Source: Lachnospiraceae bacterium
GTDB lineage: Bacteria; Bacillota; Clostridia; Lachnospirales; Lachnospiraceae
Reading direction: 5' to 3'
Length of the DNA: 37,071 bases
Assembly: GCA_024691065.1 (NCBI GenBank)
Contig: JAILOA010000227.1
Coordinates: forward strand, 1-37,071
Below the pieces are notes generated by a model, which had not been told where the DNA came from, did no database searches, and saw nothing but the letters and a program-made list of their open reading frames with translations. How positions within the stretch are numbered: the first letter of the stretch is position 1; every line of letters begins with the position of its first letter. Made by a program: the position numbers and the translations under genes. Below, one piece after another: positions 1-17,831 of the stretch.

Positions 1-1
1 A

Positions 2-270: not shown

Positions 271-3200
271 ATGAGATTAATACCAGGAAAAACAAAGGTC
301 AGGATAGAACTGTTTAAAGGAATAACTTTAGCTGATATTATAGTAGCATTACTTGGAATCGGTATTGCTACATTATGTATTGTATCAACTATTCCAGGTC
401 GAATAGGTATCGCTATAGCGATAATTGCAATCTTTGGTTTATTGTTATTCAGGCTTGATGATGAAGGACTTTATGTTTTGATTTGGCATATGTTAAGGTA
501 TTCCTCATATTCTAAAAATTATAAAATAAAGGAAATTGGAGAAGAAGAGAAAGAAAATAAGTTACTTCAGGAAGAAGTAGCTAAGGTAGTAAAAGAGAGA
601 ACAGAAGAAGAGGATAAAGTATCCGAGAAAGAGAAGAAAGAAAGACTTAAGGAATTAATCAAAGTTGAGAATGAAATACTGAAGAGCAAGACAGCTACTG
701 AAGAAGAGAAAGATGCTGTATGGCAGGCCAGAGCTGAAAGAGCTGCAGAAAAGAAAAAGGAGAAAGTTAAGAAGCAGGATAAGACAGCTAAGGTTGAGGA
801 CATAAAGAATATAGTTCCATTTACGGCAATCAAAGACGGATATGTGGAATATGGCGGAAAGTATTACGGTTGTGCCATTGAGATAGATCCGATTGAATTT
901 AGATTTTTTTCACAACATAGAAGAAATAATTCAATTGAGAGTTGTTTAGGTAAGGTATTAAGGAGCTTTCAAGGTGAATACGGTGCAAATATCGTAAAGG
1001 TTCAGAGACCTATAGTTTATGATTCTTTCCTGGATGCTGAATATAATAAATTATCCGAAATTAAAAAATCCTATGAAAACGGAATGTTTACAGAGGAAGA
1101 GTTAAAGGCAAGAGTTGAGATTCAATATGACAGAATCAATGAGGTCAGAAGACTTTGTAATGAAGATAAAGTAATTGAACCGTTTTATTATTTGGTTCTT
1201 TTTGACAGTAGTAAGTCAAGGCTTGATCTCGCAGTCAGACAGGCAATCAATACACTTCAATTAGGAGAATTGGTTGTACGTAGATTGGATTCAAGAGGAT
1301 TAGCAAAATTACTTAAGTATTCCAACGGTTTAGACTTTGATGAGTCCGAAGCTGACAGGATTGATGAAGCAGATCTTGCTAATTGGGCTACACCAAAGGA
1401 TGTTAAGTTCTATGCAAGAAAGGTTGAAGTAAACAATTTTATTACTCACAACCTGAGAGTTATATCATATCCTACAATGGTTGGTGATTCATGGCTTGCA
1501 GGAGTTATGTCATTCCCTGCCACAAAAGTTGTTGTAAAGATAGTGCCTATGGATAATGATAAGGCTATACGTGCAATTGACCGTTCACTTTCTGAACTTA
1601 GAGGTCAATATATAGCTACCAGTCAGGATTCTAAAATGTTAGAGCTTTCCGAGCATATCAATACATTATCGACACTTCTTTTAACTTTACAGCAAGATAA
1701 TGAAACTCTTCTTTCGGTTAATGTATATGTAACAGCTTATGATGCATCAATGACAGAACAAGATCCGGTACTTTCCGAAGATTTTAAGAGTTTGATGCCT
1801 TATATAGCAGATATGAAGAAAACTCTTAAAAGGAGTTGGAGTGAAGCCGGTATGAGGCTTTCAGGTATGGACTTCATGCAGGTTCAAGGTTTTATAGGAT
1901 CACAGATTTCAAACTATGATCCATTGCTTAATGACGGTAGAGGGATTCCAACCAATACGATTGCAGCTATGTTCCCGTGGATATTTGCACATATATCCGA
2001 TGAAGGTGGTATAAAGCTTGGTGAATCAGATGGAGTTCCTGTATTTATAGATTTCTTCAAAAGGGATTCCGAGAGAGTTAACTCCAATATGGTTATCGTA
2101 GGTAAGTCCGGTTCCGGTAAGTCTTATGCTACAAAAGCACTTTTAGCTAACCTGGCTTCGGAGGATGCTAAAATATTTATTTTGGATCCTGAGAATGAAT
2201 ATTCCGAGTTGGCTCATAACCTTAATGGTAAGGTTATAAATGTAGGTAATGCAAAGTATGGAAGATTAAATCCATTCCATATAATTACCGCCCTTGAAGA
2301 TGATGAAGCCGGAGAAGATGGAGGCGGTCCGGGAGGCAGCTTCGCAACACATCTTCAATTCCTCGAAGAATTTTTCAAGCAGATTCTTCCGGATATTGAT
2401 AAGGATGCTCTTGAGTTTCTTAACTCACTTATTGAAAGAGTATATCTTAACTTCGGAATCACACCGGAGACTGATCTTTCGGCTTTAACCGCTGAAGATT
2501 ATCCGATATTTGATGATTTATATGACGTTGTATTGGCAGAGTTTGAAAGAACAAACAATGAGTATTTACGTAAGTTGTTACGTTCACTTGTGAATTATAT
2601 TTCAAAATTCTCAACCGGTGGACGAAATGCTAATATTTGGAATGGACCATCAACAATAACTACCGAAGAAAACTTCTCGGTATTTAACTTCCAGTCCATG
2701 ATAGCAAACAGAAATACAACAATTGCCAATGCCCAAATGCTTTTGGTGCTTAAATATGTTGATAATGAAATCATCAAGAACAGGGATTACAATTTAAAAT
2801 ACGGTCTCAATCGTAAAGTAGTAGTTGTTATCGACGAGGCTCATGTATTTATTGATACAAAATTCCCTGTAGCGCTTGATTTTATGTTCCAGTTAGCTAA
2901 GCGTATACGTAAATATAACGGTATGCAGATAGTTATAACACAGAACATAAAGGACTTTGTCGGTAGTGAAGAGATTGCAAGAAAATCCTCTGCTATTATC
3001 AATGCCTGTCAGTACAGCTTTGTTTTTGGTCTTGCGCCAAATGATATGTCTGACCTTTGTAAGCTTTATGAAAAGGCCGGCGGCATTAATGAAAGAGAGC
3101 AGGAGGACATAGTCGGAGCCAAGAGAGGTGAAGCATTTACAATTATGAGTCCGACTTCAAGATCTTCATTTACTATAGATGTACCTCATCAGATGGTAGA

Positions 3201-4506
3201 AATGTTTGAAAATAGAGATTTCAGAAGCTATTATTTCTCCGGAGAAGAGGGTAAATCAAATTGGGAGGATTTTGTTTCAGGTAGCAGAGAAGCTCATGAT
3301 ATTAATTTCGAAGAGCGTAAACGTGCTGAAACAAAGGAAAGAGTTGTTAATGAGCGTCAAAGTATATTTAGCTTCTCTGAAATTACAGAGGATGAGGCTA
3401 AGGAAATTCAAAGGTCTTATGAAGCTGAAGCGGATGGCTCATATAATGACGAGAAAAACTCCATTAAGAGAATGATGGAAGCCGAGATGGCTGTCGACAA
3501 GAAAGAATATGAAATGGCGATGGGTCGCTTTGGTAATATTGATTTCCAGGAAATCAGCGACAGTGAAGTGAATTTGCAGGAGGAAGCTGCAGATTCGAAA
3601 TTCGGCGGTATAAGCTTTTCCGAAGTATCGGATGATGATTTGGAGAAGTTGGCAAAGGCTTCCGAGCCTACTGCTCAGTCAGCTAATACAGCTAATACTG
3701 CTAATGTAGATGAGCATTATATCAATGATACCCTCAATGAGTTCAAAGAATCTATGCGTGAAGAAATGGAAAAGGAACTTATTGATAAGATCAAATGGAT
3801 TCAGCTTGGAGCCGGTATTAATATGGCTCAGCCGGTAGCTTACGGCGGAATGGATCCGGTTAATACGGGTACTATGCCTTATCAAACGCCTCAGATGCAA
3901 ATGCCGGATAGTTACGATGATAACGGATTTGTGGACAATAATGATTATATGCCGGATAATATCGCAGGTATGGATTATGATTTAAATGATATCGGTACAT
4001 TATCAGACAGTGATGATTCACTTGATGATGAGGAAATGGATGAAGAAGACGAATTCGCATCTCTGGACGATGCACTCGGTAGTCTTGATAATATCGATCT
4101 GGATGAAGATGAATTTGAAGATTCCGATGATAATGATGATATCTTTGCTGACATTTTTGACGATGATGATGAGGATGAATTTGAAGACGATTCGGATGAC
4201 GATGATGACATCTTCGATTTTGATGAAGAATCCGATGATGAGGAATCCGAAGAAGAATCCGATGATGAATCCGATGATTTTGATGATGACTTATTTGATG
4301 ACGATGATGACATATTTGAGGTTGAGTCAGAAGAATATGAACCTACACCATTTGTATTTTCAGAGTTGCTCGCTGAAACAGCAGAAGAGTATTCGCATAT
4401 GGATGTAAGCGAGAGAATGGATGAAATCAACGAAGAAGTAATGGAAATAACCCTTGAAGAACTAATTGCATATGTAAAGAAACACAGAAAAAAGAAGGTT
4501 AGTTAA
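271..4506 (+). CDS. Fusion protein: PrgI/VirB3-like membrane hairpin + K/E coiled coil + VirB4-family (TrsE/ConE/Tn916-Orf16-like) T4SS ATPase + long extension with a polyacidic tract
   Basis: aa 1-80 carry two hydrophobic helices (FKGITLADIIVALLGIGIATLCIV; IAIAIIAIFGLLLF) in a PrgI-like layout. aa ~90-180 are K/E-rich. The ATPase core has Walker A GKSGSGKS (nt 2101-2124), ILDPENEY, NPFHI, Walker B VVVIDEAH (nt 2821-2844) and ITQN. aa ~985-1411 form an extra tail that includes a D/E tract (nt ~3900-4340). The RBS before ATG 271 is weak. Confidence 0.85.
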   Translation: MRLIPGKTKVRIELFKGITLADIIVALLGIGIATLCIVSTIPGRIGIAIAIIAIFGLLLFRLDDEGLYVLIWHMLRYSSYSKNYKIKEIGEEEKENKLLQEEVAKVVKERTEEEDKVSEKEKKERLKELIKVENEILKSKTATEEEKDAVWQARAERAAEKKKEKVKKQDKTAKVEDIKNIVPFTAIKDGYVEYGGKYYGCAIEIDPIEFRFFSQHRRNNSIESCLGKVLRSFQGEYGANIVKVQRPIVYDSFLDAEYNKLSEIKKSYENGMFTEEELKARVEIQYDRINEVRRLCNEDKVIEPFYYLVLFDSSKSRLDLAVRQAINTLQLGELVVRRLDSRGLAKLLKYSNGLDFDESEADRIDEADLANWATPKDVKFYARKVEVNNFITHNLRVISYPTMVGDSWLAGVMSFPATKVVVKIVPMDNDKAIRAIDRSLSELRGQYIATSQDSKMLELSEHINTLSTLLLTLQQDNETLLSVNVYVTAYDASMTEQDPVLSEDFKSLMPYIADMKKTLKRSWSEAGMRLSGMDFMQVQGFIGSQISNYDPLLNDGRGIPTNTIAAMFPWIFAHISDEGGIKLGESDGVPVFIDFFKRDSERVNSNMVIVGKSGSGKSYATKALLANLASEDAKIFILDPENEYSELAHNLNGKVINVGNAKYGRLNPFHIITALEDDEAGEDGGGPGGSFATHLQFLEEFFKQILPDIDKDALEFLNSLIERVYLNFGITPETDLSALTAEDYPIFDDLYDVVLAEFERTNNEYLRKLLRSLVNYISKFSTGGRNANIWNGPSTITTEENFSVFNFQSMIANRNTTIANAQMLLVLKYVDNEIIKNRDYNLKYGLNRKVVVVIDEAHVFIDTKFPVALDFMFQLAKRIRKYNGMQIVITQNIKDFVGSEEIARKSSAIINACQYSFVFGLAPNDMSDLCKLYEKAGGINEREQEDIVGAKRGEAFTIMSPTSRSSFTIDVPHQMVEMFENRDFRSYYFSGEEGKSNWEDFVSGSREAHDINFEERKRAETKERVVNERQSIFSFSEITEDEAKEIQRSYEAEADGSYNDEKNSIKRMMEAEMAVDKKEYEMAMGRFGNIDFQEISDSEVNLQEEAADSKFGGISFSEVSDDDLEKLAKASEPTAQSANTANTANVDEHYINDTLNEFKESMREEMEKELIDKIKWIQLGAGINMAQPVAYGGMDPVNTGTMPYQTPQMQMPDSYDDNGFVDNNDYMPDNIAGMDYDLNDIGTLSDSDDSLDDEEMDEEDEFASLDDALGSLDNIDLDEDEFEDSDDNDDIFADIFDDDDEDEFEDDSDDDDDIFDFDEESDDEESEEESDDESDDFDDDLFDDDDDIFEVESEEYEPTPFVFSELLAETAEEYSHMDVSERMDEINEEVMEITLEELIAYVKKHRKKKVS

Positions 4507-4541
4507 TTAAGAAGGTAAATTACTTGTAAGGAGAATAGATA

Positions 4542-4841
4542 ATGGATGTAAAATTAGTCGACAGAGGTACAGATGGTGAGTTATTGTTGACCGGGGATTT
4601 AGACACCAAGACTGCAAGGGATGCTGATGCTTTATTTACTCAGATGTCCCAGCGGTTTTTAAATATAACACTTAATATGCAGAGACTTGAATATGTATCA
4701 AGTGCAGGTCTTAGATCTATAAGAAATCTTTATATTAAGGTATATCAAAAGGGTGGAAAACTTACCATAACAAATGTTAATGAAAATGTAATGGAAGTAT
4801 TTGAAATGACCGGTTTGGCCGGATTGTTGAATATTAGATAG
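4542..4841 (+). CDS. STAS-domain anti-sigma-factor antagonist (SpoIIAA/RsbV-like)
   Basis: 99 aa. AAGGAG RBS lies 8 nt upstream of the ATG. The conserved phospho-acceptor context YVSSAGLRS is present (Ser53/Ser54, nt 4698-4703). The C-terminal MEVFEMTGL motif is typical of STAS antagonists. Confidence 0.85.
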   Translation: MDVKLVDRGTDGELLLTGDLDTKTARDADALFTQMSQRFLNITLNMQRLEYVSSAGLRSIRNLYIKVYQKGGKLTITNVNENVMEVFEMTGLAGLLNIR

Positions 4842-4932
4842 TTTAGTGAAACCCAATAGAATGGGTGAAATCAATGTGAGAGTATTTTGTAACGAGTTAA
4901 ACTTAGTTTTGTACAGGAAATGAGGTAATGCT

Positions 4933-7900
4933 ATGAAGACACAAAAACTAAAGAGATTCATAAGCTTGCTATTAATCTTAGTGCTTATGTTTTCATTGGT
5001 TCCTGTGAAAAGCGCCATGGCTGTAAAGGATGACGAAACCGCTGGAATTGATATGGACTTTGAGGAGGAAGAAACGACTGCTCCCGAAGAAACCGGATCG
5101 GCCGATTCAGAGGAGGATTCCGAAGATTCGGACAGTGATTCGGAGGATCCTTTTTCCGTCGATGAAGATAGTAATTCATCGGTTTTAAAGTCGCTTTATT
5201 CTGTAGATGTAGATGGTGAGGCACCTACATTTCAAGCGAATAAAGGTATGGAAAATTGGATAAACCGTAAATCCTATAAGGCACTTGCCAATACCTACGT
5301 TCTTCGTGTAGGAACCGGTGAAGCAGCAGGAAGTTCTATTTTATATTTCAGATTGAGATATATAAATTCAGAAGGAAAAGAAAAATTAACTTACTTATTT
5401 CCAAATACAGATGCTATGAGCCGTAGTGAGGCACTTATAAAATACACTACCGGAAATGATGAAAATTCAGTTACCCCTTATGGTGAGTCTTTATTAAAGG
5501 ATCTTCATTATAAGGAGGAATATAATGAAACTCCTCTTGACTCATGGACAGTACAGGATTATGCTTTTGAACTTATTGATTCTGTCAGTAAGCTTACAGA
5601 TGTAGATATTTATCTTTCAAAAGGTAAATGGAGCACCCAGGGTATGACCCTTTTTAAAGCAAAGAAAGTAAGGGGATACGAAGAGTATGGAATTATTTCC
5701 GGACAAAGATTTTTAGATTTTGAAGGTTATAAAATTGCCGAAGTTATAAATAAGAAAAGTGCAGTGACCATTTCTACAACAGGTACAGACAAAATTGAAC
5801 ATGTTGCTGATTCCGAGGGAAATTCGGAATATTGCGACATTATAAATCTTACCGATTCAGGGATTAAAAATTATTTTGCCTCAAGTGATGATGTATATAC
5901 TTTAAGAATGGATTTCCTTGATTCTAGGGGAGCCGGTATAGAGTCATTCATAAATAAGAAAATAAAACAAATCAATCAGGATAATGGTATTGTTGAAGAT
6001 ATTACAGTAAAGTTTCAATATAAAGATGTTGAAGGAATGTACAGAACTATTACATTTCCTGTTATTCTTAGTAGTTTTGCCGAGGCAAGGAAGCATACCG
6101 GTGATTCATATCTTATGGGATTCGCGGGAAGAGGTGAAACCATAGCTTTTACCGGATATTTACCGGGATTTGCTTCGATAGAAGGTAATGTTGAAATATC
6201 ACTTGGCGCAGCTGCAAGAACGGCTATTGAAAAAAATGGAATTACAATGGATAATGGCACAAGCAAGATGAATAATGTTCTTAATGCAACTACCAGTGAT
6301 AATGTCAATCTTTCCGGAATATCTATTTATAAGGGAAGTTGTATGTCATACGTTCTCAACGGAATAGATTCCGATGGAGATGAGTTGCAGGGTGCAAGTC
6401 TTGAATATGAATTTGAAAATGCCGAACCATTGTATTACTTTACAACCTCAGACATAATAGGTAGAGAGATTTATTCCGGAAAAAGCACTAAGCTTAAGCT
6501 TTCTGCATATAAGAGCGGTTCACAGATAATTGCTTCCACTAAAATGTCTGATAAGTTTATGATTACACTTGTTACAAGTGATATAGCGGCAGCAGGAACA
6601 AAGGATGATGTATCATTTAAGCTTTATTATAAAAATAAACAAGGAAAGGATGATAAGACAGTAACAAAATATGTCAGAAACGAAGCTGTCGATTTCATGG
6701 GAGATTGGATCTCTACAGATGATGATGACTTTGTTTATAACGGAGGTATGGCACCCGGAGGATATATTAATTTCCTGATAGATGCTCCTAATTTGAAGAA
6801 CCCGACTCAGGTTGATTTATCTCTTTTAGGTAATGATGAGTGGCAGATGAAGGATATGGTGGTTTCATACCTGGATAGTTATGGAAAGAGAAAAGCCTAT
6901 ATATCCAAAAATCCGGAAAAGGGTTCATATTATTGGGTTCAGCGTTCGTTAGAATCTGCCGAAATATTTACACTTTCCACTGCAAATACAAGCGTACAGG
7001 ATGATAGCGGAAATAATATCAGTCCTGACGGTACTTCAACAGGTGAAGATGAAGAAGAATTTTCTATTAACAGAGGCGAGCAATTATTCTTAGGCGGAGC
7101 GTCGCTCTCATTTTCTTTCGAAACAGGTAAAGCTAATACTGTTGAGGAACAAGATAATTATTCAGAAGTCCGTTATAAGATGAGTTATGAGCAAACTCAG
7201 ATTAACTGGGGATTCACAAAGAAAAGAAAGGTATATGATGTACAGGTTAAAGTAGATAATGATTCCGCTTATTCCAATGATAACGGTGATGCGGGTTCTG
7301 TAAACTATTTCTACTTCCAGCTCATATTTAAGAATGGTAACAGTGCATATGTACTTGCAAACCAGCAGATTTCCAGTGACGGTTTCCGTTCCGGAAAAAC
7401 CGAGACATTTACGATTTCAACTAATAGAGATTACGGAAATTTGGTAGGTATACGTATTATACCTGAAGAAATATCAGATGATACCGATTCATTTGATAAG
7501 CTTAATATTGCAAATGTAACTATATCCGAACATACCAATGGTGGAGCATATATGCTTTACGTAATTGACCAGGTTGGTTGGATTGATATTGATTACAGAG
7601 ACGAAGCAGAGGTTTACTCGGCAAGAGGAAGGGCTGCAAGATCTGCAGATGAGCTTTCCAAGATTTATAAGGTTACACATAAGGAACGTGCTGTAAATCT
7701 CTTATGTGAGATGACTACACATCCATGGGATAATGATTATAAACCATTTGAAGGTTCAATGTTGGCAGAGGTTAAGTATGTGAGCTCAACAACAAATGAA
7801 ATCGAAACAATGACTTTCGATGTAGTACAAAGACTTGCCGATTATATGGGTAAAACTGCCAAGAGCGTTGAATATGAGACAAATCCTAATGTCGAATTGG

Positions 7901-9975
7901 GATATGAGGCATTTATGTCTACCGTATCGGATCCTGACTGGATGTTCAGACCGAGTCAGACAGATAGATTTGTAATGCCACCGCTTCCGGATTTTAAGTA
8001 TTTGAAGAGTATTAAATTTATAGGAATGAGCAGAAACGGCTATCCGGCAATTTGGAATCTTGGAAGAATTACCATTTCTCAGGTATTAGAGGATGGAGCA
8101 ATTCAGCTCACTAATAATAATGAATATTACAGAAACTTAAAGACAGAAAGGTTGTGTGAGAGGACAGATTCAAATATTATATCAACCCTGTTCCCAATTG
8201 GGTCGGTTCAGAGTACACCTGAAATAATGTTCACTGAAAATGAAGTTGAATTTGATAATGAATACTGGACAACACCTGTTACAAGAGTGCCTGATTCGTC
8301 CGATGATAAGTTAAATATTTTCTTATATCCTTCGGCAAGTAACAGACAAATCGGTACTACCGAAGTTGACGTTTCCTTACAATATGAAACGGATTATTCG
8401 CAGATGATGCAGGTAAGTCATGAGGGTATGTATACTGCTAACAGTGGTACAGATGATGCAGTATTCTATATTACCGGATTAAAGGCTAATAATTTTGCCA
8501 GTGCGGGACAAATAGGATTACAATGTTTGAATTCCAGTGTCGCCTTTGATTATGCGATAGTGCAGCATGTCCGGGAAAATGTAGTAATGTCAACGTATCA
8601 ATATGAGTTTAGTGATTCATCTGCTGTTCTGGGACTTATAGGACAACCTAGTCAGCAATTGACAAATATCGATAAAACTACTGAAAAGATTGCATTATCA
8701 TTTGGTGCAGGAACAGAGAATAAGAAACTCATAGCCGAACAATATGATGTGGCCGTTGCATTTTACTATAGATCTACAATTGATGATGGTGCCGCAGAGT
8801 ACAGATCGCCGTATATTTACCTGACAGACCAAGGTTATACAGAACTTCGGGAGGGCTTATATGCCGAGCTTGAATACGATTTGTCCTATGTCAAGAAGAT
8901 AACGGGAATCAGTGTGGTAAGTTTCGGTACATTGAAGGCCAATGTCGATGCCTCCTGTGGAGTAATATATCAAATAGATGAAGAAGTAAAGAATGAAGAA
9001 ACCGGTATTTATGAAGTAACCAAGACTTCAAAGAGAGGTTATACATCATTTGCTAATTCATTTGCGGTAACAGAGACAGAGACTAAGTATGAAAAGACAT
9101 CTCTTAAGACATACGGAGATGAAAGTGTGGCTCCTGTAGCAATTACATTTAGGACATCCGAAGCATCAGCTTTGAATGAGAGCGGAACGGATTCAAAGGT
9201 TAGAATGATATTCTATTACAGAGATTCATCTAATAACCTTCTGACGAAGACCTTTGATGATATTACACCTTATATTCAGGATGACACGAGAAAATTCGTT
9301 ACAGGTGAGGAAGCGACAGTTAAGATATTCCTTCCTAAGTTAAATGAAGCATTATCAATTATAGCGATAGATATTATGCCATATAACGGTAAGATTATAA
9401 CAGATCAGTCGGTTGAGTCCGTGATTAATGATTCAACATCGCTGACAGATGGAACCTCGGTTAAGAAGGTTGTTGAAAGCAAGAATGCAAGCTGGACAAT
9501 TTCATCGGTTAAATGTGATATAGGTTATGGTGACAGAACTATCGAAAGAGAAGTTGAGCAACAATTTGCAGGTGTAACAAATGGCGATAGATTGAGACTT
9601 AATGATGTTACACTTACAACATACACATCCTTGAATGGTGGACTTAATCAGGAAGTTAAGGATCATTCAACAAATATCCTTGCCAAGGGCGGCGATAAGA
9701 TTCAGGGAACAGTAATTGTCAGTGATTCAACAGCAGGTTATAACGTAGATGTATATAGAATGGTTGGAGATGCAGGAGAAGAGATTTCACTTTCTGTACT
9801 TTCAAATGTTAAGAAACGTAAATTTACATTTACTACTCCTGAGAATAATACAACAGACAATGTAATCTACAAGATTGAGATAAGCCCTGTTGATGCACCT
9901 GATATAAAGGATGTTGTCTACATTACAGTAGAAAAAACAGAGACGACCGCGGCGAGTGGCAGTGCCGTTAATTAA
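4933..9975 (+). CDS. Giant exported protein (1680 aa) with acidic N-terminal linker and about 8-9 repeated PLAT/LH2-like beta-sandwich modules; no sortase or lipobox signal
   Basis: Sec signal MKTQKLKRFISLLLILVLMFSLVPVKSAMA. A D/E/S-rich linker follows. A recurring module signature resembles PLAT, for example YVLRVGTGEAAGSSILYFRLRY, ITLVTSDIAAAGTKDDVSFKLYY ... NDEWQMKDMVVSYL, and GDAGSVNYFYFQLIF ... GNLVGIRIIPE. A GAGG RBS is present. The domain call is pattern recognition, not a search result. Confidence 0.8.
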   Translation: MKTQKLKRFISLLLILVLMFSLVPVKSAMAVKDDETAGIDMDFEEEETTAPEETGSADSEEDSEDSDSDSEDPFSVDEDSNSSVLKSLYSVDVDGEAPTFQANKGMENWINRKSYKALANTYVLRVGTGEAAGSSILYFRLRYINSEGKEKLTYLFPNTDAMSRSEALIKYTTGNDENSVTPYGESLLKDLHYKEEYNETPLDSWTVQDYAFELIDSVSKLTDVDIYLSKGKWSTQGMTLFKAKKVRGYEEYGIISGQRFLDFEGYKIAEVINKKSAVTISTTGTDKIEHVADSEGNSEYCDIINLTDSGIKNYFASSDDVYTLRMDFLDSRGAGIESFINKKIKQINQDNGIVEDITVKFQYKDVEGMYRTITFPVILSSFAEARKHTGDSYLMGFAGRGETIAFTGYLPGFASIEGNVEISLGAAARTAIEKNGITMDNGTSKMNNVLNATTSDNVNLSGISIYKGSCMSYVLNGIDSDGDELQGASLEYEFENAEPLYYFTTSDIIGREIYSGKSTKLKLSAYKSGSQIIASTKMSDKFMITLVTSDIAAAGTKDDVSFKLYYKNKQGKDDKTVTKYVRNEAVDFMGDWISTDDDDFVYNGGMAPGGYINFLIDAPNLKNPTQVDLSLLGNDEWQMKDMVVSYLDSYGKRKAYISKNPEKGSYYWVQRSLESAEIFTLSTANTSVQDDSGNNISPDGTSTGEDEEEFSINRGEQLFLGGASLSFSFETGKANTVEEQDNYSEVRYKMSYEQTQINWGFTKKRKVYDVQVKVDNDSAYSNDNGDAGSVNYFYFQLIFKNGNSAYVLANQQISSDGFRSGKTETFTISTNRDYGNLVGIRIIPEEISDDTDSFDKLNIANVTISEHTNGGAYMLYVIDQVGWIDIDYRDEAEVYSARGRAARSADELSKIYKVTHKERAVNLLCEMTTHPWDNDYKPFEGSMLAEVKYVSSTTNEIETMTFDVVQRLADYMGKTAKSVEYETNPNVELGYEAFMSTVSDPDWMFRPSQTDRFVMPPLPDFKYLKSIKFIGMSRNGYPAIWNLGRITISQVLEDGAIQLTNNNEYYRNLKTERLCERTDSNIISTLFPIGSVQSTPEIMFTENEVEFDNEYWTTPVTRVPDSSDDKLNIFLYPSASNRQIGTTEVDVSLQYETDYSQMMQVSHEGMYTANSGTDDAVFYITGLKANNFASAGQIGLQCLNSSVAFDYAIVQHVRENVVMSTYQYEFSDSSAVLGLIGQPSQQLTNIDKTTEKIALSFGAGTENKKLIAEQYDVAVAFYYRSTIDDGAAEYRSPYIYLTDQGYTELREGLYAELEYDLSYVKKITGISVVSFGTLKANVDASCGVIYQIDEEVKNEETGIYEVTKTSKRGYTSFANSFAVTETETKYEKTSLKTYGDESVAPVAITFRTSEASALNESGTDSKVRMIFYYRDSSNNLLTKTFDDITPYIQDDTRKFVTGEEATVKIFLPKLNEALSIIAIDIMPYNGKIITDQSVESVINDSTSLTDGTSVKKVVESKNASWTISSVKCDIGYGDRTIEREVEQQFAGVTNGDRLRLNDVTLTTYTSLNGGLNQEVKDHSTNILAKGGDKIQGTVIVSDSTAGYNVDVYRMVGDAGEEISLSVLSNVKKRKFTFTTPENNTTDNVIYKIEISPVDAPDIKDVVYITVEKTETTAASGSAVN

Positions 9976-9987
9976 ATCAGTAATTAA

Positions 9988-10024
9988 GCACAATTCAGTA
10001 ACCTTTTAGGGTACTGAATTGTGC
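9988..10024 (+). other. Perfect 13-bp inverted repeat (intra-operon stem-loop) without a U-tract
   Basis: GCACAATTCAGTA (9988-10000), an 11-nt loop, then TACTGAATTGTGC (10012-10024). It starts 13 nt after the stop of the 1680-aa gene and ends 23 nt before the next ATG. Confidence 0.6.
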
Positions 10025-10047
10025 TGTGTTGTAAAGGAATAATTGTT

Positions 10048-11421
10048 ATGAAGAATTTAATCGAAAACATTAAAAAAAATAAGCTTCCAATTATTATTGC
10101 ATTAGCTGTAATGGCCTTAATTATAACTATTTTATTGCTCACCGGCGGAAGTGGGGATAGCGGTAAAAAGGAAGAAGAGAAGGAAGCTAAAGTAGAGTAT
10201 ACTAATATTTTTGAAGATTCCGATTATCCTTCAAAGTATACGCTCGAAGGCTCTGATGTGGTAGTTTATGTAAATAATGAAAAAACACCTAACGATAATT
10301 GGATTATAGAAGTTGAAGATGAAGAATTTGTTGAAGTCACTGAAGAAAAAAGTGAAGGAACCGATTCTAAATTTATAATTCATACCAAAAAGCCGGGAAA
10401 AACAGATGTTACAATTACAAAGAGAACACATGTATCAGAGGTTGATTTTGAAATTGTAACCATAACTTTACCTGTATATATTTCCAGGGCTAATGATGTG
10501 CTTACTCCTGAGATTTTAAACAATTATTCTATTGTAGATTATGGTGGAGAAGTTGGCGGTGAAGATGCAAGTTCTCCATATGTACTTATAAATAATCCTT
10601 CCGGTACAGGAGAGATTGTATTTACTAAGGGTATAGGTAACTGGGATATCGATTCGGATTGGGAGGTTGTCAGAACCGGTAATTCCGGAATCGATGTTAA
10701 TAATATGTTCTATGTAGTATTTGAAGAGGGAGCAGAGGAGAAAGTCCAAAACGATATAAATATATACGGAAATTCATATTCTTCCGATGAAAATGATAAT
10801 AATGATGAGTCATCTTCAAATAGTAGTTCGAATTCGGATAGCTCTGACAGTTCGGATAGCTCTGACACCTCGGGTGATTCTACAAATGTTGCAGGAGATT
10901 ATAGTTTCGATGTAGATGGATTTGTAGATGAATATGAAAGTAATTACGGTGATGAAAATGGTACCGTAGAGGGTTCTTCGGAATCAGAACCTGAGGAGGA
11001 AGAGGCCATAGGAACAATTAATAATGAGTTGGAACTTGCCACTAATGGAAATTCCTCAAATGATTCTTCAAAGAAAGATAAAAAGAAAAACAAAAATAAG
11101 AAAAAAAATAAAAAGAAAAAAGATAAAACAGCTACAACGGAAAGTGAATCTACAACGGCATCTGCAGAGGATTATCCGGAATATAATTTCGGTGATAAAG
11201 AAGCAACAACTCCTTCGCCTGAACCTACCCAAAAAGCTTCCGAAAAGAAGGATAGTAGCGAGAAAAGCGATAAAACTTCGGAAATTATTACTTTGACAAA
11301 TTCTAAAAAGAATATTGTAGAGTATGTTAAGGCAAAGGTTACAAAGGACGGAAAAGTTATACTTACCAGGTATGAAAAGAAGTCAGATAAAAAAGATAAA
11401 TCCGAAAAGAAAGATAAGTAA
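10048..11421 (+). CDS. Bitopic membrane protein of unknown function (N-terminal signal-anchor, beta-rich ectodomain, S/D-rich and polybasic tracts)
   Basis: I moved the start to ATG 10048, which has an AAGGA RBS about 9 nt upstream; the GTG at 10021 lies inside the hairpin. TM segment is LPIIIALAVMALIITILLLTGG. Low-complexity tracts include SSSNSSSNSDSSDSSDSSD and KKDKKKNKNKKKNKKKKDK. Confidence 0.7.
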   Translation: MKNLIENIKKNKLPIIIALAVMALIITILLLTGGSGDSGKKEEEKEAKVEYTNIFEDSDYPSKYTLEGSDVVVYVNNEKTPNDNWIIEVEDEEFVEVTEEKSEGTDSKFIIHTKKPGKTDVTITKRTHVSEVDFEIVTITLPVYISRANDVLTPEILNNYSIVDYGGEVGGEDASSPYVLINNPSGTGEIVFTKGIGNWDIDSDWEVVRTGNSGIDVNNMFYVVFEEGAEEKVQNDINIYGNSYSSDENDNNDESSSNSSSNSDSSDSSDSSDTSGDSTNVAGDYSFDVDGFVDEYESNYGDENGTVEGSSESEPEEEEAIGTINNELELATNGNSSNDSSKKDKKKNKNKKKNKKKKDKTATTESESTTASAEDYPEYNFGDKEATTPSPEPTQKASEKKDSSEKSDKTSEIITLTNSKKNIVEYVKAKVTKDGKVILTRYEKKSDKKDKSEKKDK

Positions 11422-11453
11422 TAGTTCTTCGGTTAATGTTAAGAGGTGATTAA

Positions 11454-12374
11454 GTGTTAACAAAGGAAAGTAAAAATAATCCGATTTTAATGGAAGCCAG
11501 AGAGTTTTTACTGGGACATTACAGGGTTGAAGAGGATGGTAGCCTTACAGCTATTTCAGCAATGGAATCCAGAATTAACGGACCTATTGACGGATCACAA
11601 AAGATAATAACTCTTGGTATATCTCATCAAAGTTATAATTATAATTTCGGAGTTGACAATAAAAAAGCCCTGAAAAAAGCCAGGGGTGTAATGAAAAATA
11701 TAGGTAGACCTCTTAACGATTTCGGAGACGGTGATATGGCTGCCTGTATGATAAAAACATATGTTTTTTATCCTACTGTTGCCGTATTTCGCATAAATGA
11801 TAATGATGTTCCTGAGTTGTCTGTTTTTACTGCGAGAGCTACATTTGCTTTTGTTGCTATTTTAATAGCAGTCCGAAAGTTTGAAAATGCTTTTGATGTG
11901 GACTTTGATAAGGAAACAGTTAAGAAAAAAAGTTTTTTTGAAAAAAGGAGAGAAAGAAAAGAAGAGAAAGCAAGAAAAAAAGCAGAAAAAAAAGAGGCTA
12001 AAAAGGAAGTTAAAGATTTATCCGGCAGTAATAAGAAAAGTAAAGGTGGTATAAAAAATTTATTTTCATCCAATAATCCGGATGAGGATGATGAAGATTC
12101 ATACGATATGATAATGGGAGAATATATTAAAGATATTGATGAATCGGATTTTGATACGGATGATTATATCGGTAAAGAACTTGATAACAATATGGTTTGG
12201 AACGGAGAAGATTGGGTTCCTAAGGAACAATATAAGAAAAAAGATGAAAAGATGGTTTGGGACGGGAGGAAAATGGTTCCAATCAGTGAATATAACCCTG
12301 AAAATGAAGATGAAGTATGGGACGGAGAAAAATGGGTTCTAAAAGAATCAGTTGAGAGCGATGAAGACCGGTAA
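11454..12374 (+). CDS. Unknown protein with one hydrophobic segment, a K/E-rich linker and three C-terminal VW(N/D)Gxx(W/M)VP mini-repeats
   Basis: GTG start lies 7 nt after an AAGAGG RBS. Hydrophobic stretch is ATFAFVAILIAV. The repeats are MVWNGEDWVPKEQY, MVWDGRKMVPISEY and EVWDGEKWVLKESV. I recognise no family. Confidence 0.6.
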   Translation: MLTKESKNNPILMEAREFLLGHYRVEEDGSLTAISAMESRINGPIDGSQKIITLGISHQSYNYNFGVDNKKALKKARGVMKNIGRPLNDFGDGDMAACMIKTYVFYPTVAVFRINDNDVPELSVFTARATFAFVAILIAVRKFENAFDVDFDKETVKKKSFFEKRRERKEEKARKKAEKKEAKKEVKDLSGSNKKSKGGIKNLFSSNNPDEDDEDSYDMIMGEYIKDIDESDFDTDDYIGKELDNNMVWNGEDWVPKEQYKKKDEKMVWDGRKMVPISEYNPENEDEVWDGEKWVLKESVESDEDR

Positions 12375-12411
12375 TAATTTCATTTATAGTTAAAGCTCAT
12401 GGAGGAATTAT

Positions 12412-12849
12412 ATGGAGGATGAAAACAAGCTGGTAGTTGATGCGACGGAAGAAGCTTTGGATGATGTCGAAAAGTATATAGAAGATAAGCTTGATGCGGC
12501 CGGTTGCACCAACAAACAAAAGATTCAAATCAGGCTTGCCATAGAAGAAATATTTGTAAATATTGCGATGTATGCATATAGTCCCGGAATGGGTAAAGCT
12601 GAGGTTATTTGCGAGATACTTGATGAAGAGCCTATTGCTGTTATGATTAAATTTATTGACAGTGGTAAGCAATTCAATCCGTTGGAAAAAGAGGATGCGG
12701 ATACATCCGGTAAGATGTTTATCGAGAGAGAGGGAGGCTTTGGAATTCATCTTGTCAAAAATATTATGGATGTTGTAGAATATGAATATATCGAAGGAAA
12801 GAATGTATTAACTGTAAAAAAGGATTTAAATATAAAAAAGGTCAGTTGA
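12412..12849 (+). CDS. Anti-sigma regulatory factor-type Ser kinase (RsbW/SpoIIAB-like, GHKL HATPase_c_2)
   Basis: GGAGGA RBS. N-box AIEEIFVNIAMYAY, G1-like FIDSGKQFNP and G2-like GGFGIHLVKNIMD. Size is 145 aa, typical of the family. Confidence 0.85.
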   Translation: MEDENKLVVDATEEALDDVEKYIEDKLDAAGCTNKQKIQIRLAIEEIFVNIAMYAYSPGMGKAEVICEILDEEPIAVMIKFIDSGKQFNPLEKEDADTSGKMFIEREGGFGIHLVKNIMDVVEYEYIEGKNVLTVKKDLNIKKVS

Positions 12850-14486
12850 CTATGGGGGTAAGGAATTTGGATGAGCAAATAGATATGGGTCAAACCAAAA
12901 AAAAGAAAAGTATCCAGTCAAGGTTCACCAGAGGAATGTTCATCATGGGGATATTGACAGTATTAATCACGAGTGTAAATGTTGGTGTTTTGTTATACAG
13001 AGATAAAATGAATTCATATTCCAGAATGGCATACGGTTATACCCGTTCAATAGCCGAATATATTGATGGGGATACTATAGCAACCTACATGGATACTAAA
13101 GTTAAAGATAGTTATTATATGGAAGTTGATAAATTCCTGGATGCTGTTCAGACTAAAAGTGATATAGAATATTTCTATATAATTATTCCTGACGGAGAGA
13201 ATTATATATATGTATGGGACTCCGTTAATGAACATTTAAAATCAAATATAGGTTATGTGGAGCATTTCAGTAAAAAAGAGGCGGAACATGTTCAAAAAAT
13301 AATGAATGGTACTTATTCCGAAAAACTTTATATTACCAACGATTCTATGTATGGTCACCTAGGAACTGCCTATTCACCTATATATGACAGTAATGATGAG
13401 ATAGTAGCCATAGTTGCCGCAGATGTTGATATGTCAATGGTCTCGGTGATTGTTGCATTGTTTATATTATTTGTGGCTATATGTATAGCGATTGTTCTTA
13501 CTATAACCATTGTTATATATTATTTTGTTACAAAATCAACAATTATAGTACCTATCAGTAAACTTAACAGAATAACATCTACAATGGTAAAAAACATTGA
13601 CAGCAACGAAGAAATAGAGTTGGATATACATACAGGTGATGAAATAGAAGAGCTGGCCGAGTCTTATAAGAAAATGTATTACGAGATGAGGGAATACATT
13701 GATGAAAATACTAAGATAACGGCAGAGCGTGAAAAAGTCGATTCGGAGCTTCAAATAGCGAGAACCATTCAAAATGGTATGTTGCCTAAGCTTTTTCCGG
13801 ATTATGTGGATTCGGATTATTATGATATGTTTGCTTCTATGGATCCCGCAAGAGAGGTTGGAGGAGATTTTTATGACTTTTTCATGGTAGATGAGAATCA
13901 TCTTGCATTACTTATTGCGGATGTTTCCGATAAAGGAATAGGTGCTGCTCTCTTTATGTCTATTTCCAAGGCACTTATAAAGATGAGGATGGAGATGACA
14001 AAATCTCCTTTAGAAACCATTACTTATGTAGATAAGAAAATCTCGGAAAATAATGAAATAGGTATGTTTGTTACTGTTTGGCTCGGGGTTGTAAATTTAG
14101 AAACAGGTCATGTTGTTGCATGCAATGCAGGACATGATTATCCGGCTATTATGCATCAAGGTGAGGATTTTAAGGTGGAGAAGACACCACATGGTCCTGC
14201 AGTTGCATTTTTACCGGGGATGACATTTAATGATATAGAATTTGACCTTAAAGTGGGAGATAGGATTTTTCTTTATACCGATGGCCTGGTTGAGGCTAAG
14301 GATACAGGCGGAAAGCGTTTCGGAATTGAAAAAATGCTTGATATACTAAACAATAATAAAGACGAGAAAAATGAAGATCTTTTGAATATTATGAAGAAGG
14401 AAGTAGAAACATTTTCAAAGGGAGAAAATCAATTTGACGATATGACAATGCTTGGATTTACATTTTACGGAAAAAAAGTAAATTAA
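12846..14486 (+). CDS. Membrane sensor PP2C phosphatase (TM - ~145-aa extracytoplasmic Cache-like domain - TM - HAMP - SpoIIE/RsbU-type PP2C)
   Basis: It overlaps the kinase stop by 4 nt (TTG 12846; alternative ATG 12852). TM1 is GILTVLITSVNVGVLLY and TM2 is VIVALFILFVAICIAIVLTITIVIYYFV. PP2C motifs are GGDFYDFF, LLIADVSDKGIGAALFMS, YTDGLVEA and FDDMTMLGF. Confidence 0.85.
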   Translation: MTMGVRNLDEQIDMGQTKKKKSIQSRFTRGMFIMGILTVLITSVNVGVLLYRDKMNSYSRMAYGYTRSIAEYIDGDTIATYMDTKVKDSYYMEVDKFLDAVQTKSDIEYFYIIIPDGENYIYVWDSVNEHLKSNIGYVEHFSKKEAEHVQKIMNGTYSEKLYITNDSMYGHLGTAYSPIYDSNDEIVAIVAADVDMSMVSVIVALFILFVAICIAIVLTITIVIYYFVTKSTIIVPISKLNRITSTMVKNIDSNEEIELDIHTGDEIEELAESYKKMYYEMREYIDENTKITAEREKVDSELQIARTIQNGMLPKLFPDYVDSDYYDMFASMDPAREVGGDFYDFFMVDENHLALLIADVSDKGIGAALFMSISKALIKMRMEMTKSPLETITYVDKKISENNEIGMFVTVWLGVVNLETGHVVACNAGHDYPAIMHQGEDFKVEKTPHGPAVAFLPGMTFNDIEFDLKVGDRIFLYTDGLVEAKDTGGKRFGIEKMLDILNNNKDEKNEDLLNIMKKEVETFSKGENQFDDMTMLGFTFYGKKVN

Positions 14487-14498
14487 AAAAATTATTTT

Positions 14499-14527
14499 TG
14501 TAACTCATTTGTAACGCATTGTATGGT
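14499..14527 (+). promoter_or_regulatory. Site A: tandem TGTAAC direct repeat (11-bp period) overlapping a candidate promoter of the 531-aa gene
   Basis: TGTAACTCATT TGTAACGCATT occupies 14499-14520. Candidate promoter is TTGTAA (14498-14503), an 18-nt spacer, then TATGGT (14522-14527). The ATG is 73 nt downstream of the -10-like hexamer. Confidence 0.5.
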
Positions 14528-14599
14528 AGACTTGTGAAAAAAGATGGATGAAAAGGAGTTCATCTTAATTGATAACTATTTGAAAGAGAGGTAAAAGTT

Positions 14600-16195
14600 A
14601 TGAATAATAACGATCAGAATCAAATTGATAATATTAATAATTTAAATTATGGACAGAATAATTATAACTTCGACGATAATAATAGTATTGTAGATGTTGA
14701 TGCAAATAATATTGATGATTCTATTTTAGATGGTGAAGAAAATGAGATGAACCAGAACCAGATGGATCCGAATATGATGTATCAGAATCAGATGGATCCG
14801 AATATGATGTATCAGAACCAGATGGATCCGAATATGCAGATGAATCAGAATCAGATGGATCCGAATATGATGCAGCAGAATATGCAGATGGATCAGAATC
14901 AGATGGATCCGAATATGATGCAGCAGAATATGCAGATGGGTGAGAACCAGATGAATCAGAATCAGATGGATCCGAATATGATGCAGATGAATATGCAAAA
15001 TCAGAATCAGATGCAGCAGAATCTGCAGGTTGAAGAAGAGAAGAAGAGAAGAGAAAAGGAAGAAGAAGAAGAAAAGAGAAAGGCTTTCATTGCTCAGGAA
15101 GCAAAGATTCAGAGGGAGAAGGAAGATATTGCTATGAAACAGCAGCAATTCGAATTCGAAAAGAATGCCTTTGAACAAATGAAGGAAGAACAACAGGAAA
15201 GGATGGCTAATGGTCAGGGTAATGGTCAGAATAAACCGGAAGATCCTAATGAAATAAAGCCTACTAAGCGTGTTCGTACAAAATTAGAAGATAGATTGAT
15301 TCGTCAGGCGGAATTTACATACTATAAGAGAACACATAGGGTTCCGAAGGGCGGAAATGAAGCATATAAGAATTTACAAAAGGATCTCGCCGCTTTAGAG
15401 GATTATATGGAGGAAATCGAAGGAAGAACCAATCTTACACAGGAAGAAATGGATAAGTATGATAAACTCTCTTTGCAGGTTTATGATGCATCAAGAAAAT
15501 ACCTTCAAGAAAAGAATGAGGAATATGGTCTAGAGGCTTCTGCAGGTGAAAGAGCAGCAATGAATGCCAAGAAACCTGACAAGGAAGAAAGCGCCAGAAT
15601 AGACTTTGTAAAAGATTTAGCCGCAAGTGTACATCTTATGCGTAAGGAAATGTTTGAGGATCAGCTAAAGGAAAAGGTAGAAAGTCTTAATGCATTGGCA
15701 AGTGAAGGTGTTGCAGCAAGTCAGAGAGACAGAGATGCACTTTTGGGTGCTGATTTATCCGATAATGATAAGAGAGTTCAGCTTGAAGATACAGTTGTTC
15801 GTTCATTGTTTTATGATGCAAGAATCGGTCAGGCCGCTTCTAAGAACGAACTTGAGCTTAAAGAGGGAGAAAGCTTTGATAAAGCATTGATTCGCCTGGA
15901 TTCCTTACTTGATCCAAAGCCTGTAGAATTGGATGGTATCCGTAATGATCCTCTTACTCAGACAATAGTAGACAAGGGTGTTCAGATGAATGAATCCGGA
16001 TTATCCATGACAGTTGATGATATTAATCATGAGAAGAATGTGATCCTGGTTCAAAAGGGAAGAGAAATTGAGCATGAGCGTAACAGACAGAATAATATGG
16101 CTAAGCATGAGCCTGCACGTCAGAATAATCTCGAGAGACAGCTTGAGGGACCTCAGCCAAATAATATCAGCACAGTTCATGCACCCGGTTTCTAA
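14600..16195 (+). CDS. Leaderless 531-aa protein: N/Q/M-rich repeat head (NQMDPNMM units), K/E coiled coil, helical C-terminal domain; unknown function
   Basis: AGAGG RBS. No signal peptide or TM segment. The repeat region spans aa 50-143. I recognise no family. Confidence 0.75.
   Translation: MNNNDQNQIDNINNLNYGQNNYNFDDNNSIVDVDANNIDDSILDGEENEMNQNQMDPNMMYQNQMDPNMMYQNQMDPNMQMNQNQMDPNMMQQNMQMDQNQMDPNMMQQNMQMGENQMNQNQMDPNMMQMNMQNQNQMQQNLQVEEEKKRREKEEEEEKRKAFIAQEAKIQREKEDIAMKQQQFEFEKNAFEQMKEEQQERMANGQGNGQNKPEDPNEIKPTKRVRTKLEDRLIRQAEFTYYKRTHRVPKGGNEAYKNLQKDLAALEDYMEEIEGRTNLTQEEMDKYDKLSLQVYDASRKYLQEKNEEYGLEASAGERAAMNAKKPDKEESARIDFVKDLAASVHLMRKEMFEDQLKEKVESLNALASEGVAASQRDRDALLGADLSDNDKRVQLEDTVVRSLFYDARIGQAASKNELELKEGESFDKALIRLDSLLDPKPVELDGIRNDPLTQTIVDKGVQMNESGLSMTVDDINHEKNVILVQKGREIEHERNRQNNMAKHEPARQNNLERQLEGPQPNNISTVHAPGF
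14747..15028 (+). repeat. In-frame tandem DNA repeats encoding (M/Y)QNQMDPNMM units
   Basis: The core CAGATGGATCCGAATATG occurs six times at intervals of 30-51 nt (30-nt and longer repeat units). Confidence 0.9.
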
Positions 16196-16483
16196 TAAAT
16201 TAAGTAAATAAGATGATATATATACTGCCCAGCTTGTCCAGGTCTTTATATAAGGCTTGGTAGCGGATTTAAGGTCCGGATAAAAGATATATTCCAAAAT
16301 ACACCGAATCCGCGTGTTACCAAGTATGGGCAATATATTTATATATGTGAAATATTTGTTAAGTATTAAAATAAGCTTGAAGAAATATGAATATGTATGA
16401 TAATATAGGCTTGAGAAGCCTTTTATGGGAGTTTCGGGATACAGTTAGTAAATGTAAAATATTAAAAGAAGGAGGTGGCTTTA

Positions 16484-17797: not shown

Positions 17798-17831
17798 ATA
17801 GGTTCTTACATTTAAGTTAATGGAGGATAAA

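Follow-up and report, generated by a model that had tools for sequence, protein, structure and literature searches.

A STAS, kinase and membrane PP2C trio linked to a relaxase-less VirB4/VirD4 secretion-like gene cluster of Clostridia as a putative partner-switching phospho-switch

We analysed a stretch of 37,071 nucleotides from a Lachnospiraceae bacterium (assembly GCA_024691065.1, contig JAILOA010000227.1, positions 1 to 37,071; hereafter the window), low-GC clostridial DNA (about 35%) in which the genes for a single-domain STAS protein, a HATPase_c_2 serine kinase and a membrane PP2C phosphatase lie in one run with the gene of a VirB3/VirB4-like type IV secretion system (T4SS) ATPase. With moderate confidence, we propose that these three proteins form a partner-switching-type phospho-switch, which would be a dedicated and conserved accessory of a chromosomal, relaxase-less VirB4/VirD4 T4SS-like machine and would gate this machine post-translationally. 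The features predicted earlier from the window sequence were present at the coordinates given, each domain assignment standing well beyond chance. The proposal builds on what was observed directly: which domains the proteins have, their catalytic and acceptor motifs, how they sit in the membrane, how the operon is laid out, and the linkage of the trio to the cluster, which is conserved. The host cluster, which combines VirB4/VirD4 with a VirB2-like pilin and a giant secreted protein and lacks a relaxase, appears itself to be undescribed and occurs in many rumen and gut Lachnospiraceae and Ruminococcaceae.

The STAS gene (4542..4841, + strand) encodes a protein of 99 amino acids (aa) that matched Pfam STAS (3.7e-12) and passed the cut-off of the anti-sigma-antagonist profile TIGR00377 (61.1 bits vs 53.45). 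Its closest solved relatives in the PDB are SpoIIAA and RsbV, although the SpoIIAA equivalog cut-off was not reached (43.7 vs 114.75), and a weak match to the MlaB profile (1.9e-4) likewise stayed below the cut-off (21.8 vs 90). The gene had been predicted from the window sequence to start 35 nt behind the ATPase gene, and coordinates, ribosome-binding site and Pfam match all confirm this: the ATPase stop codon occupies 4504-4506, an AAGGAG ribosome-binding site lies at 4528-4533 and the STAS ATG is at 4542. Alignment of the YVSSAGL motif places Ser54 at the position of SpoIIAA Ser58 and RsbV Ser56, making Ser54 the putative phospho-acceptor; the original prediction had recognized the SSAGL context and named Ser53/54, of which the alignment retains Ser54 and not Ser53. 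This residue is invariant in 24 cluster-linked STAS proteins (window included) and in 11 further STAS proteins encoded beside shorter VirB4 homologues, and the Y[VI]SSAGLR motif is invariant across related clusters. No other protein of the cluster is as well conserved among the closest relatives as STAS, at 75-85% identity; VirB4 follows with 65-75%, while kinase and phosphatase reach 38-62% and 35-47%, respectively.

The RsbW/SpoIIAB-like serine kinase (145 aa; 12412..12849, + strand; HATPase_c_2, 1.7e-18) is preceded by a GGAGG ribosome-binding site. Its N (EEIFVN), G1 (DSG) and G2 (GGFGIH) boxes are intact, as had been predicted, align with those of SpoIIAB and RsbW and are conserved in the cluster-linked kinases. 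All equivalog scores were below their cut-offs (RsbW, 31.0 vs 145 and 23.4 vs 155; SpoIIAB, 16.4 vs 135), and no sequence match was found in the PDB at E <=0.01. The phosphatase gene follows at 12852..14486 (+ strand; alternative TTG start at 12846). The 4-nt overlap with the kinase gene that had been put forward relies on TTG 12846, which has no usable ribosome-binding-site spacing, whereas ATG 12852 has AAGG 9 nt upstream. One of two recorded gene calls, P0121 (544 aa), uses an ATG 12852-type start; the other, P0122, is 539 aa long. Because of this spacing and the P0121 call, ATG 12852 is the likelier start, which leaves a gap of 2 nt instead of the overlap; the two genes are still tightly coupled.

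The phosphatase (Pfam SpoIIE, 4.1e-41) consists of a first transmembrane segment (TM1), a PDC/sCache-like domain, a second transmembrane segment (TM2), a HAMP region and the SpoIIE domain. Hydrophobic segments were found at residues 30-52 and about 195-235, and the metal-binding aspartates D339, D357, D477 and D529/D530 are invariant in the homologue alignment. An extracytoplasmic domain between two transmembrane helices followed by HAMP had been read from the sequence, and this topology was borne out by the AlphaFold2 (AF2) model (pLDDT 81.7), in which a long TM1 helix is followed by an alpha/beta domain at about 73-193, by TM2 running into HAMP-like helices and by the PP2C domain. The sequence match to HAMP is weak (0.005), and precomputed Pfam annotation lists PF00672 in roughly half of the homologues among the matches listed. 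The original prediction had also suggested that the fold of the extracytoplasmic domain be modelled, and in the AF2 model residues 73-193, approximately, show the helix-strand order of a PDC/single-Cache fold, so that we describe this domain as PDC/sCache-like. Foldseek searches with the phosphatase model returned the RsbU domain of Rv1364c, RssB, SiaA and SpoIIE, and at full length a WalK model, in agreement with a WalK-like NCBIfam match at the N-terminus. The whole-model search was dominated by the catalytic domain and gave no specific ligand-binding homologue for the sensor domain, whose fold is assigned from the order of secondary-structure elements and from the WalK-like matches. The SiaA profile was not reached (58.6 bits vs 700). 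As a separate observation, many PP2C homologues of rumen Clostridia (P0139-P0218) are fused to a HATPase_c_2 kinase, giving proteins of 660-680 aa.

The ATPase (1411 aa; 271..4506, + strand) carries P-loop_TraG (3.4e-18), DUF87 and AAA_10 domains. On the NCBIfam profile VirB4_plasma, which describes the Mbov_0397 family of VirB4 proteins from Mycoplasma integrative conjugative elements (ICEs), it scored 548 bits against an equivalog cut-off of 590; judged by these profiles, it belongs to the VirB4 superfamily and not to the Mbov_0397 equivalog. At its N-terminus, two transmembrane segments fit a VirB3-VirB4 fusion; at the other end, a tail of some 400 aa, acidic and of low complexity, closes with a conserved motif some 45 aa long. 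More than 100 clostridial proteins are related to it at 55-76% identity, spanning two orders of Clostridia; their hosts are metagenome-assembled genomes of Lachnospiraceae and Eubacterium, as well as Ruminococcus and Ruminococcaceae, with Ruminococcus sp. YRD2003 and Ruminococcaceae bacterium FB2012 as isolates. The window gave no megablast match in the plasmid database PLSDB, where the best protein-level relatives of the ATPase are Spiroplasma VirB4s with 26-29% identity and nothing is closer.

From 271 to 23520 the window holds a run of + strand genes, followed by housekeeping genes. All genes from the ATPase gene through 18461 are co-directional with intergenic gaps of about 2-279 nt, and a terminator scan found no credible internal terminator in this interval. 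A terminator-like hairpin at 18552..18582 (+ strand, 14 bp stem followed by a T run) is the only long-stem (14-pair) + strand site of this kind in 1-19999 and probably ends the transcription unit carrying the trio. Six other terminator-like sites in the same range have stems of 5-8 pairs, five of them lying within coding sequences and one at 18744-18759. A promoter scan performed at chance level (78 matches vs 77.8 expected). The kinase gene starts 7,570 nt behind the STAS stop, in agreement with the distance of about 7.5 kb originally given for kinase and phosphatase, and the interval contains three open reading frames (ORFs) of 1680 aa (the giant secreted protein), 466 aa (p466) and 306 aa (p306). 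The window opens at the tail of the gene preceding the ATPase gene; because it thus starts at the ATPase gene, it does not include the cluster head, which is where the regulators are encoded in relatives.

To place this arrangement among its relatives, we assembled a comparison set from annotated contigs, a metagenome scan with the ATPase alignment and tblastn/hidden Markov model mapping of the window proteins. Exact look-ups of the ATPase, STAS and kinase of the window gave no recorded match. Loci whose ATPase is close (at least 54% identical) were taken as related, giving 31 loci that are mostly metagenomic and include some near-duplicates (L087 and L109). Their consensus order starts with a regulator, a VirB2-like pilin (PF18895), sometimes p611, VirD4, p412, the polytopic, VirB6-like p943, VirB3/4 and STAS, and continues with the giant, p466, p306, kinase, PP2C and p531 genes and, further on, p1209. 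VirD4, the VirB2-like pilin and the VirB6-like protein are encoded directly upstream of the ATPase in L001, L003, L087 and L108. STAS was found within the cluster in 24 of the 31 loci. Among the 24 clusters with both genes in range (23 related loci and the window), STAS starts <=47 nt from the VirB4 stop in 18, and in half of these (9 of 18) the two genes overlap or are separated by <=6 nt; on the other side, the STAS-giant junction is a 4-nt overlap in seven loci. Seven of the 31 loci showed no STAS: L105 ends at the VirB4 stop, and the other six belong to a rearranged subclade with the order VirB4-giant-VirD4-p306-STAS. In L107, which shares this rearranged order, STAS lies about 2.8 kb beyond the giant gene, just past the sequenced range of the other six.

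Kinase and PP2C genes follow giant-p466-p306 in the window and in L004, L005, L086, L087, L108 and L109, sometimes with insertions such as a HEPN/MNT toxin-antitoxin pair in L004 (5648-6384) or LPG-synthase and major facilitator superfamily genes between kinase and PP2C in L005 (6055-10004). Other arrangements also occur: the trio is contiguous in L096 (p306-STAS-kinase-PP2C), L106 has the order STAS-kinase-VirB4 and L101 the order VirB4-STAS-p306-kinase. The trio of the window had been described as orphan and split. Neither description survives the comparison, since the linkage is conserved in related clusters and the window itself presents one co-directional unit; both terms were artefacts of viewing a single locus, whose arrangement is one among several. 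Shorter VirB4 homologues (43-53% identity, about 880 aa) are also sometimes followed by a weaker STAS match (L119, L122, L124, L129, L133 and L134), with PP2C present as well in two of these loci, which indicates that the VirB4-STAS association is older than this subfamily. Together, the conserved linkage argues that the trio is part of the T4SS-like machine. In L001, a PDDEXK/AAA transposase-like gene was seen after STAS (15558-17234).

A genome scan with the PP2C alignment yielded, among the matches listed, 80 loci (L006-L085) that represent generic modules of PP2C followed by kinase; the limits of this set apply to all statements on it. These modules contain the closest PP2C relatives in genomes at large, at about 40% identity, and carry no T4SS genes, with neither VirB4 nor giant neighbours apart from a possible case in L077. 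The cluster-linked kinases form a group of their own, which reaches 55-62% identity in L004, L005, L087 and L109, falling to 38-53% where the cluster locus is more distant; kinases of the generic modules showed 48% identity or less, with one at 52%, and thus overlap with the distant cluster kinases.

No Sigma70 Pfam domain was detected in any major ORF of the window, and phmmer searches with SigB, SigF, RpoD and SigW gave no match among all window ORFs of at least 50 aa. For these searches, Pfam confirmed the SigB and SigF queries as having Sigma70_r2/r3/r4, the RpoD query was a fragment, and the SigW query recovered real extracytoplasmic function (ECF) sigma factors in other loci. The originally noted lack of a sigma gene therefore holds for the 37 kb of the window and does not generalise: an ECF sigma gene (Sigma70_r2 + r4_2) directly precedes the pilin gene in L092 (1124-1675) and L108 (906-1385), Ruminococcus-like, and further ECF sigma genes occur near shorter VirB4 homologues in L124 and L129. 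ORFs of the SigB/SigF/RpoD type were absent across 165 loci (phmmer). No sigma gene was present in L001, L087 and L109, the closest relatives with 10 kb of upstream sequence. Instead, a PF06580 histidine kinase and/or a response regulator stands directly before the pilin gene in these three (L001, 500-2677; L087, 2861-4075) and in six further close loci. On the gene content of these loci, the head regulator is interchangeable in type while the trio persists, and because the cluster thus carries a separate transcription regulator at its head, a non-transcriptional output of the trio is favoured. In the generic PP2C-then-kinase modules, a sigma gene was found within 10 kb in 2 of 80, and sigma-less partner switching may be the rule in rumen Clostridia.

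These observations together suggest how the switch could work, with phosphorylation, direction of switching and target all proposed from gene content and order. The PP2C phosphatase would sense an extracellular cue via its PDC/sCache-like domain, and the HAMP linker would relay the signal to the phosphatase domain. While the kinase would phosphorylate STAS at Ser54, the phosphatase would take the phosphate off, thereby setting the ratio of phosphorylated to unphosphorylated STAS, and the phosphorylation state would decide which partner STAS binds. Made from the same mRNA as VirB4, STAS could be available in stoichiometric amounts, and its change of partner would gate how the apparatus is assembled or how it works; STAS could act on the VirB3/4 ATPase itself, or it could release another protein that the kinase holds. 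The two-component system (or ECF sigma factor) at the head of the cluster would see to transcription independently of the switch. The output had originally been assigned, as probable, to the ATPase or apparatus; the tie of the trio to the apparatus and the separate head regulator agree with the latter, while the ATPase as specific target is suggested by gene order. MlaB, a single-domain STAS protein, binds and tunes MlaF, the transport (ABC) ATPase encoded next to it, and this precedent together with the gene coupling makes the VirB3/4 ATPase a candidate target. In contrast to MlaB, which is not known to be switched in this way, STAS comes here with kinase and phosphatase genes, and the ATPase family differs. 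A more specific version, which we advance only tentatively, is that STAS in one phospho-state docks on the VirB3/4 ATPase (or on p306) and licenses export of the giant protein and of p531/p1209, with the phosphatase reading an extracellular ligand.

The closest functional parallel is the bsc type III secretion system (T3SS) of Bordetella, where the PP2C phosphatase BtrU, the STAS protein BtrV and the kinase BtrW are needed for secretion and do not work via a sequestered sigma factor, while the ECF sigma factor BtrS does transcription (PMC8256260). As in the window, a complete trio lies inside a secretion locus, and as with BtrS, the regulator is separate from the trio, some relatives of the window even having an ECF sigma gene at the cluster head. 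The two differ in that the machine considered here, known from its genes alone, is a monoderm T4SS-like one, whereas that of Btr is a diderm T3SS; no orthology is implied. STAS is here wedged between the ATPase and giant genes and the phosphatase is a transmembrane sensor. The Bacillus systems SpoIIAA-SpoIIAB-SpoIIE/SigF and RsbV-RsbW-RsbU/SigB share the three families, the position of the acceptor serine and the kinase boxes, but unlike them the window has no linked sigma gene, a different gene order and context, and equivalog scores that for all three proteins fall well short of the cut-offs. Chlamydia RsbU and Pseudomonas SiaA have the same layout of sensor, transmembrane segment, HAMP and PP2C, with the SiaA PP2C among the best structural matches, and SiaA resembles the proposed switch in acting on a non-sigma output. 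In contrast, the sensor domain found here is unrelated to theirs in sequence, SiaC is not a classical STAS protein, and their outputs are c-di-GMP (Sia) and sigma-66 (Chlamydia). As for the machine, MPF-FATA monoderm conjugation systems have the nearest VirB4 core (Mbov_0397 family), and their VirD4, VirB6-like and hydrolase components have counterparts here, the first two in related clusters and the hydrolase in the window. They differ from the related clusters, which have a VirB2-like pilin gene that is not reported for MPF-FATA; no relaxase was found here, and the ATPase carries the VirB3-like N-terminus and long acidic tail.

Several observations weigh against a post-translational gate on the apparatus. 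Adjacency cannot separate binding of STAS to VirB4 from mere co-expression, and interactions among STAS, kinase and VirB4 are predicted from genes alone. Because most of the related loci are metagenomic and some are near-duplicates, the linkage counts do not represent independent lineages. Two loci, L003 and L090, show STAS with no kinase or PP2C within reach. Finally, the ECF sigma genes heading the cluster in L092 and L108, in L092 with a PP2C gene just before, mean that the output may yet be transcriptional. Such an output could come from a classical anti-sigma circuit, in which the kinase holds a sigma factor encoded outside the window (the ECF factor at the head, or one of the SigB/SigF type) that dephosphorylated STAS frees for transcription of the T4SS genes. 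The three protein families are those of the SigB/SigF circuits, the window lacks the head of its own cluster, and the ECF sigma genes near shorter VirB4 homologues fit such a scheme as well. We nevertheless regard it as unlikely, as a two-component system stands in place of a sigma gene in the nearest relatives whose upstream sequence is complete, the 165 loci are devoid of SigB/SigF/RpoD-type ORFs, the kinase scores 31 bits against the 145-bit RsbW cut-off, and STAS sits between VirB4 and the giant gene with overlapping stops and starts, unlike a regulator operon. Kinases of the RsbW/SpoIIAB type are known to bind group-3 or primary sigma factors and not ECF sigmas.

The other explanations keep the trio at the apparatus and change its partner, its chemistry or the cargo. 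In one of them, the kinase would hold p306 (or the reverse), dephosphorylated STAS would displace it and free p306 would act on the apparatus. Clusters of this type conserve the N-terminal domain of p306, whose family is very small and specific; the protein lacks a signal peptide and is mostly encoded as immediate neighbour of kinase or STAS (L096, L101, L107, L077 and the window). Adjacency is weak evidence, though, in a protein that offers no usable fold, no fusions and no domain matches and that also occurs in L003 and L090, where no kinase was seen nearby, and we judge this version improbable, a little more so than an anti-sigma circuit. It is highly improbable, in our estimate, that STAS helps the ATPase in the manner of MlaB, as a structural partner that is always present and never phosphorylated, with kinase and phosphatase acting on other substrates. 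Such a helper would fit the linkage and conservation of STAS, both the strongest of any member, its occurrence without nearby kinase and PP2C in L003 and L090 and its weak match to the MlaB profile. The invariance of Ser54 and SSAGLR, as in phosphorylated antagonists, the passing of the anti-sigma-antagonist cut-off, where the MlaB profile gave 21.8 against a cut-off of 90, the contiguous trio of L096 and the STAS-kinase adjacency in L106 all speak against it. The cluster could also be the transfer module of an unrecognised ICE, with the trio timing mating on a signal from recipient or environment, and VirD4, VirB4, a VirB2-like pilin, a VirB6-like protein and a hydrolase indeed make up the parts list of monoderm conjugation, the ATPase being nearest to the VirB4 family of Mycoplasma/Spiroplasma ICEs. 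Against this stand the absence of relaxase, integrase and replication families from the window ORFs and from the Pfam-annotated L001 and L003-L005 (novel relaxases could escape such a search), the housekeeping genes that follow directly, and the lack of any PLSDB relative above 29% identity, which lead us to doubt it about as much as the switch onto p306. The ICE proposal is about the cargo of the machine, leaving the working of the trio aside, and can hold alongside the phospho-switch that we favour.

Neither STAS, kinase and PP2C nor any phosphatase or anti-sigma entry figures in a class-by-class catalogue of T4SS components (PMC4027160), and a review of STAS-only proteins names T3SS, biofilm, motility and stress outputs and no T4SS (PMC8256260). 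Our literature search, with subscription journals outside its coverage, returned nothing relevant on STAS, partner switching or Rsb proteins with VirB4, T4SS or conjugation in Firmicutes. T4SSs are usually viewed as controlled via transcription or substrate recruitment. Sigma-less partner switching on a secretion machine is known, and its attachment to a T4SS-like system would, on the gene content described here, be new; the trio is a comparatively well-supported addition to the outputs of such switches. If wired into the ATPase operon, the switch would add a fast, signal-dependent gate that parallels Btr on the T3SS. PpkA/PppA form a comparable gate on the type VI secretion system. Should the docking and licensing model be true, no earlier description of a post-translational phospho-gate on a T4SS would exist, and the cluster would define a new T4SS family, common among Clostridia of rumen and gut. 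The cargo of the machine and the timing of its export matter for the way in which abundant commensal fibre degraders deal with surfaces, hosts or neighbours.

The three genes between STAS and kinase had been called structural. This fits the giant secreted protein (1680 aa; 4933..9975, + strand), with its signal peptide, and p466 (10021..11421, + strand), an extracytoplasmic, low-complexity protein anchored by an N-terminal transmembrane segment (19-47), but not p306, which looks cytoplasmic from its sequence. The giant protein has a hydrophobic N-terminus (5-32), a weak PLAT-like domain (3.1e-5) and no sequence relative in the PDB; its homologues come after STAS in related loci at 25-49% identity and are conserved but fast-evolving. 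For p466 no Pfam match was obtained, and weak homologues stand in the same position in L004, L005, L086, L087 and L090. The p306 gene (11454..12374, + strand) encodes a protein without signal peptide that has a conserved N-domain of about 145 aa, a basic tail and three V-W-D-G-x-x-W-V repeats at its C-terminus. An exhaustive search found 77 representatives among 1.84 billion sequences, where a word-indexed search gave 2, and Pfam, NCBIfam and the exhaustive search gave neither a domain match nor an informative fusion; the AF2 model, built from a 3-sequence alignment, was unusable (pLDDT 47.6) and was not used. In most loci where p306 was detected it adjoins kinase or STAS (L096, p306-STAS-kinase-PP2C; L101, STAS-p306-kinase; L107, p306-STAS; L077, p306-kinase), and in L094 it is one ORF from PP2C. 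We therefore consider p306 a candidate alternative partner of the kinase and an equally open target beside the ATPase.

Downstream of the phosphatase gene, p531 (14600..16195, + strand) is a soluble protein without transmembrane segments, whose Q/N/M-rich N-terminal region of the NQMDPNMM type is encoded by a 48-nt repeat array (14737-14980) and precedes a charged, coiled-coil-like stretch. It is conserved after PP2C, with homologues in L004, L005 and L101, and is a possible substrate or accessory. A cell-wall hydrolase with NlpC/P60 (Pfam NLPC_P60, 3.7e-27) and SH3 (SH3_3) domains (16475..17797, + strand), for which a VirB1-like role is predicted from its domains, was not seen in the downstream flanks of L004 and L005. 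The last gene before the terminator at 18552 encodes a polytopic membrane protein (17820..18461, + strand) with a weak Peptidase_M50B match (2.1e-4, below cut-off). Beyond it, p208 (19087-19713) and p1209 (19891-23520), both on the + strand, encode soluble proteins with no transmembrane segments and no Pfam match above cut-off. p208 and the C-terminus of p1209 have a domain of about 110 aa in common (BLASTP 1e-10), and p1209 homologues are present in L004 and L005 and recur in related clusters. Because both proteins are soluble and p1209-like proteins recur, the shared domain may serve for recognition of the two as T4SS substrates. Through a 59-nt direct repeat (19668-19781, x1.9), the 3' end of p208 is found again in the spacer that precedes p1209.

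PADLOC defence models matched none of STAS, kinase and PP2C, nor six other proteins scanned (including the giant, p466, p306, p531 and p208). An anti-phage defence reading was rejected, the PADLOC matches (mad8, HerA) being confined to the P-loop region of the ATPase.

The housekeeping genes after the cluster encode GNAT, YunG, MatE, bPH, RidA, S49 peptidase, RDD-family and RecO proteins, a CHAP-GH5 protein and a CoA-enzyme activase. An intergenic tandem repeat (24200-24455; 48 nt, 5.4 copies, 90% matches) separates the GNAT (-) and YunG (+) genes, which are divergent. The gene of the RDD-family membrane protein (29416-30894) contains a long 30/60-nt repeat array (30002-30492) with a local GC of up to about 0.43, and its product has a sub-threshold Extensin_1 match (25.8 bits vs 105 cut-off). 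The 650-aa protein encoded at 32145-34097 brings together a CHAP domain, a peptidoglycan-binding domain and a GH5 cellulase, an unusual pairing of a cell-wall amidase with a glycoside hydrolase.

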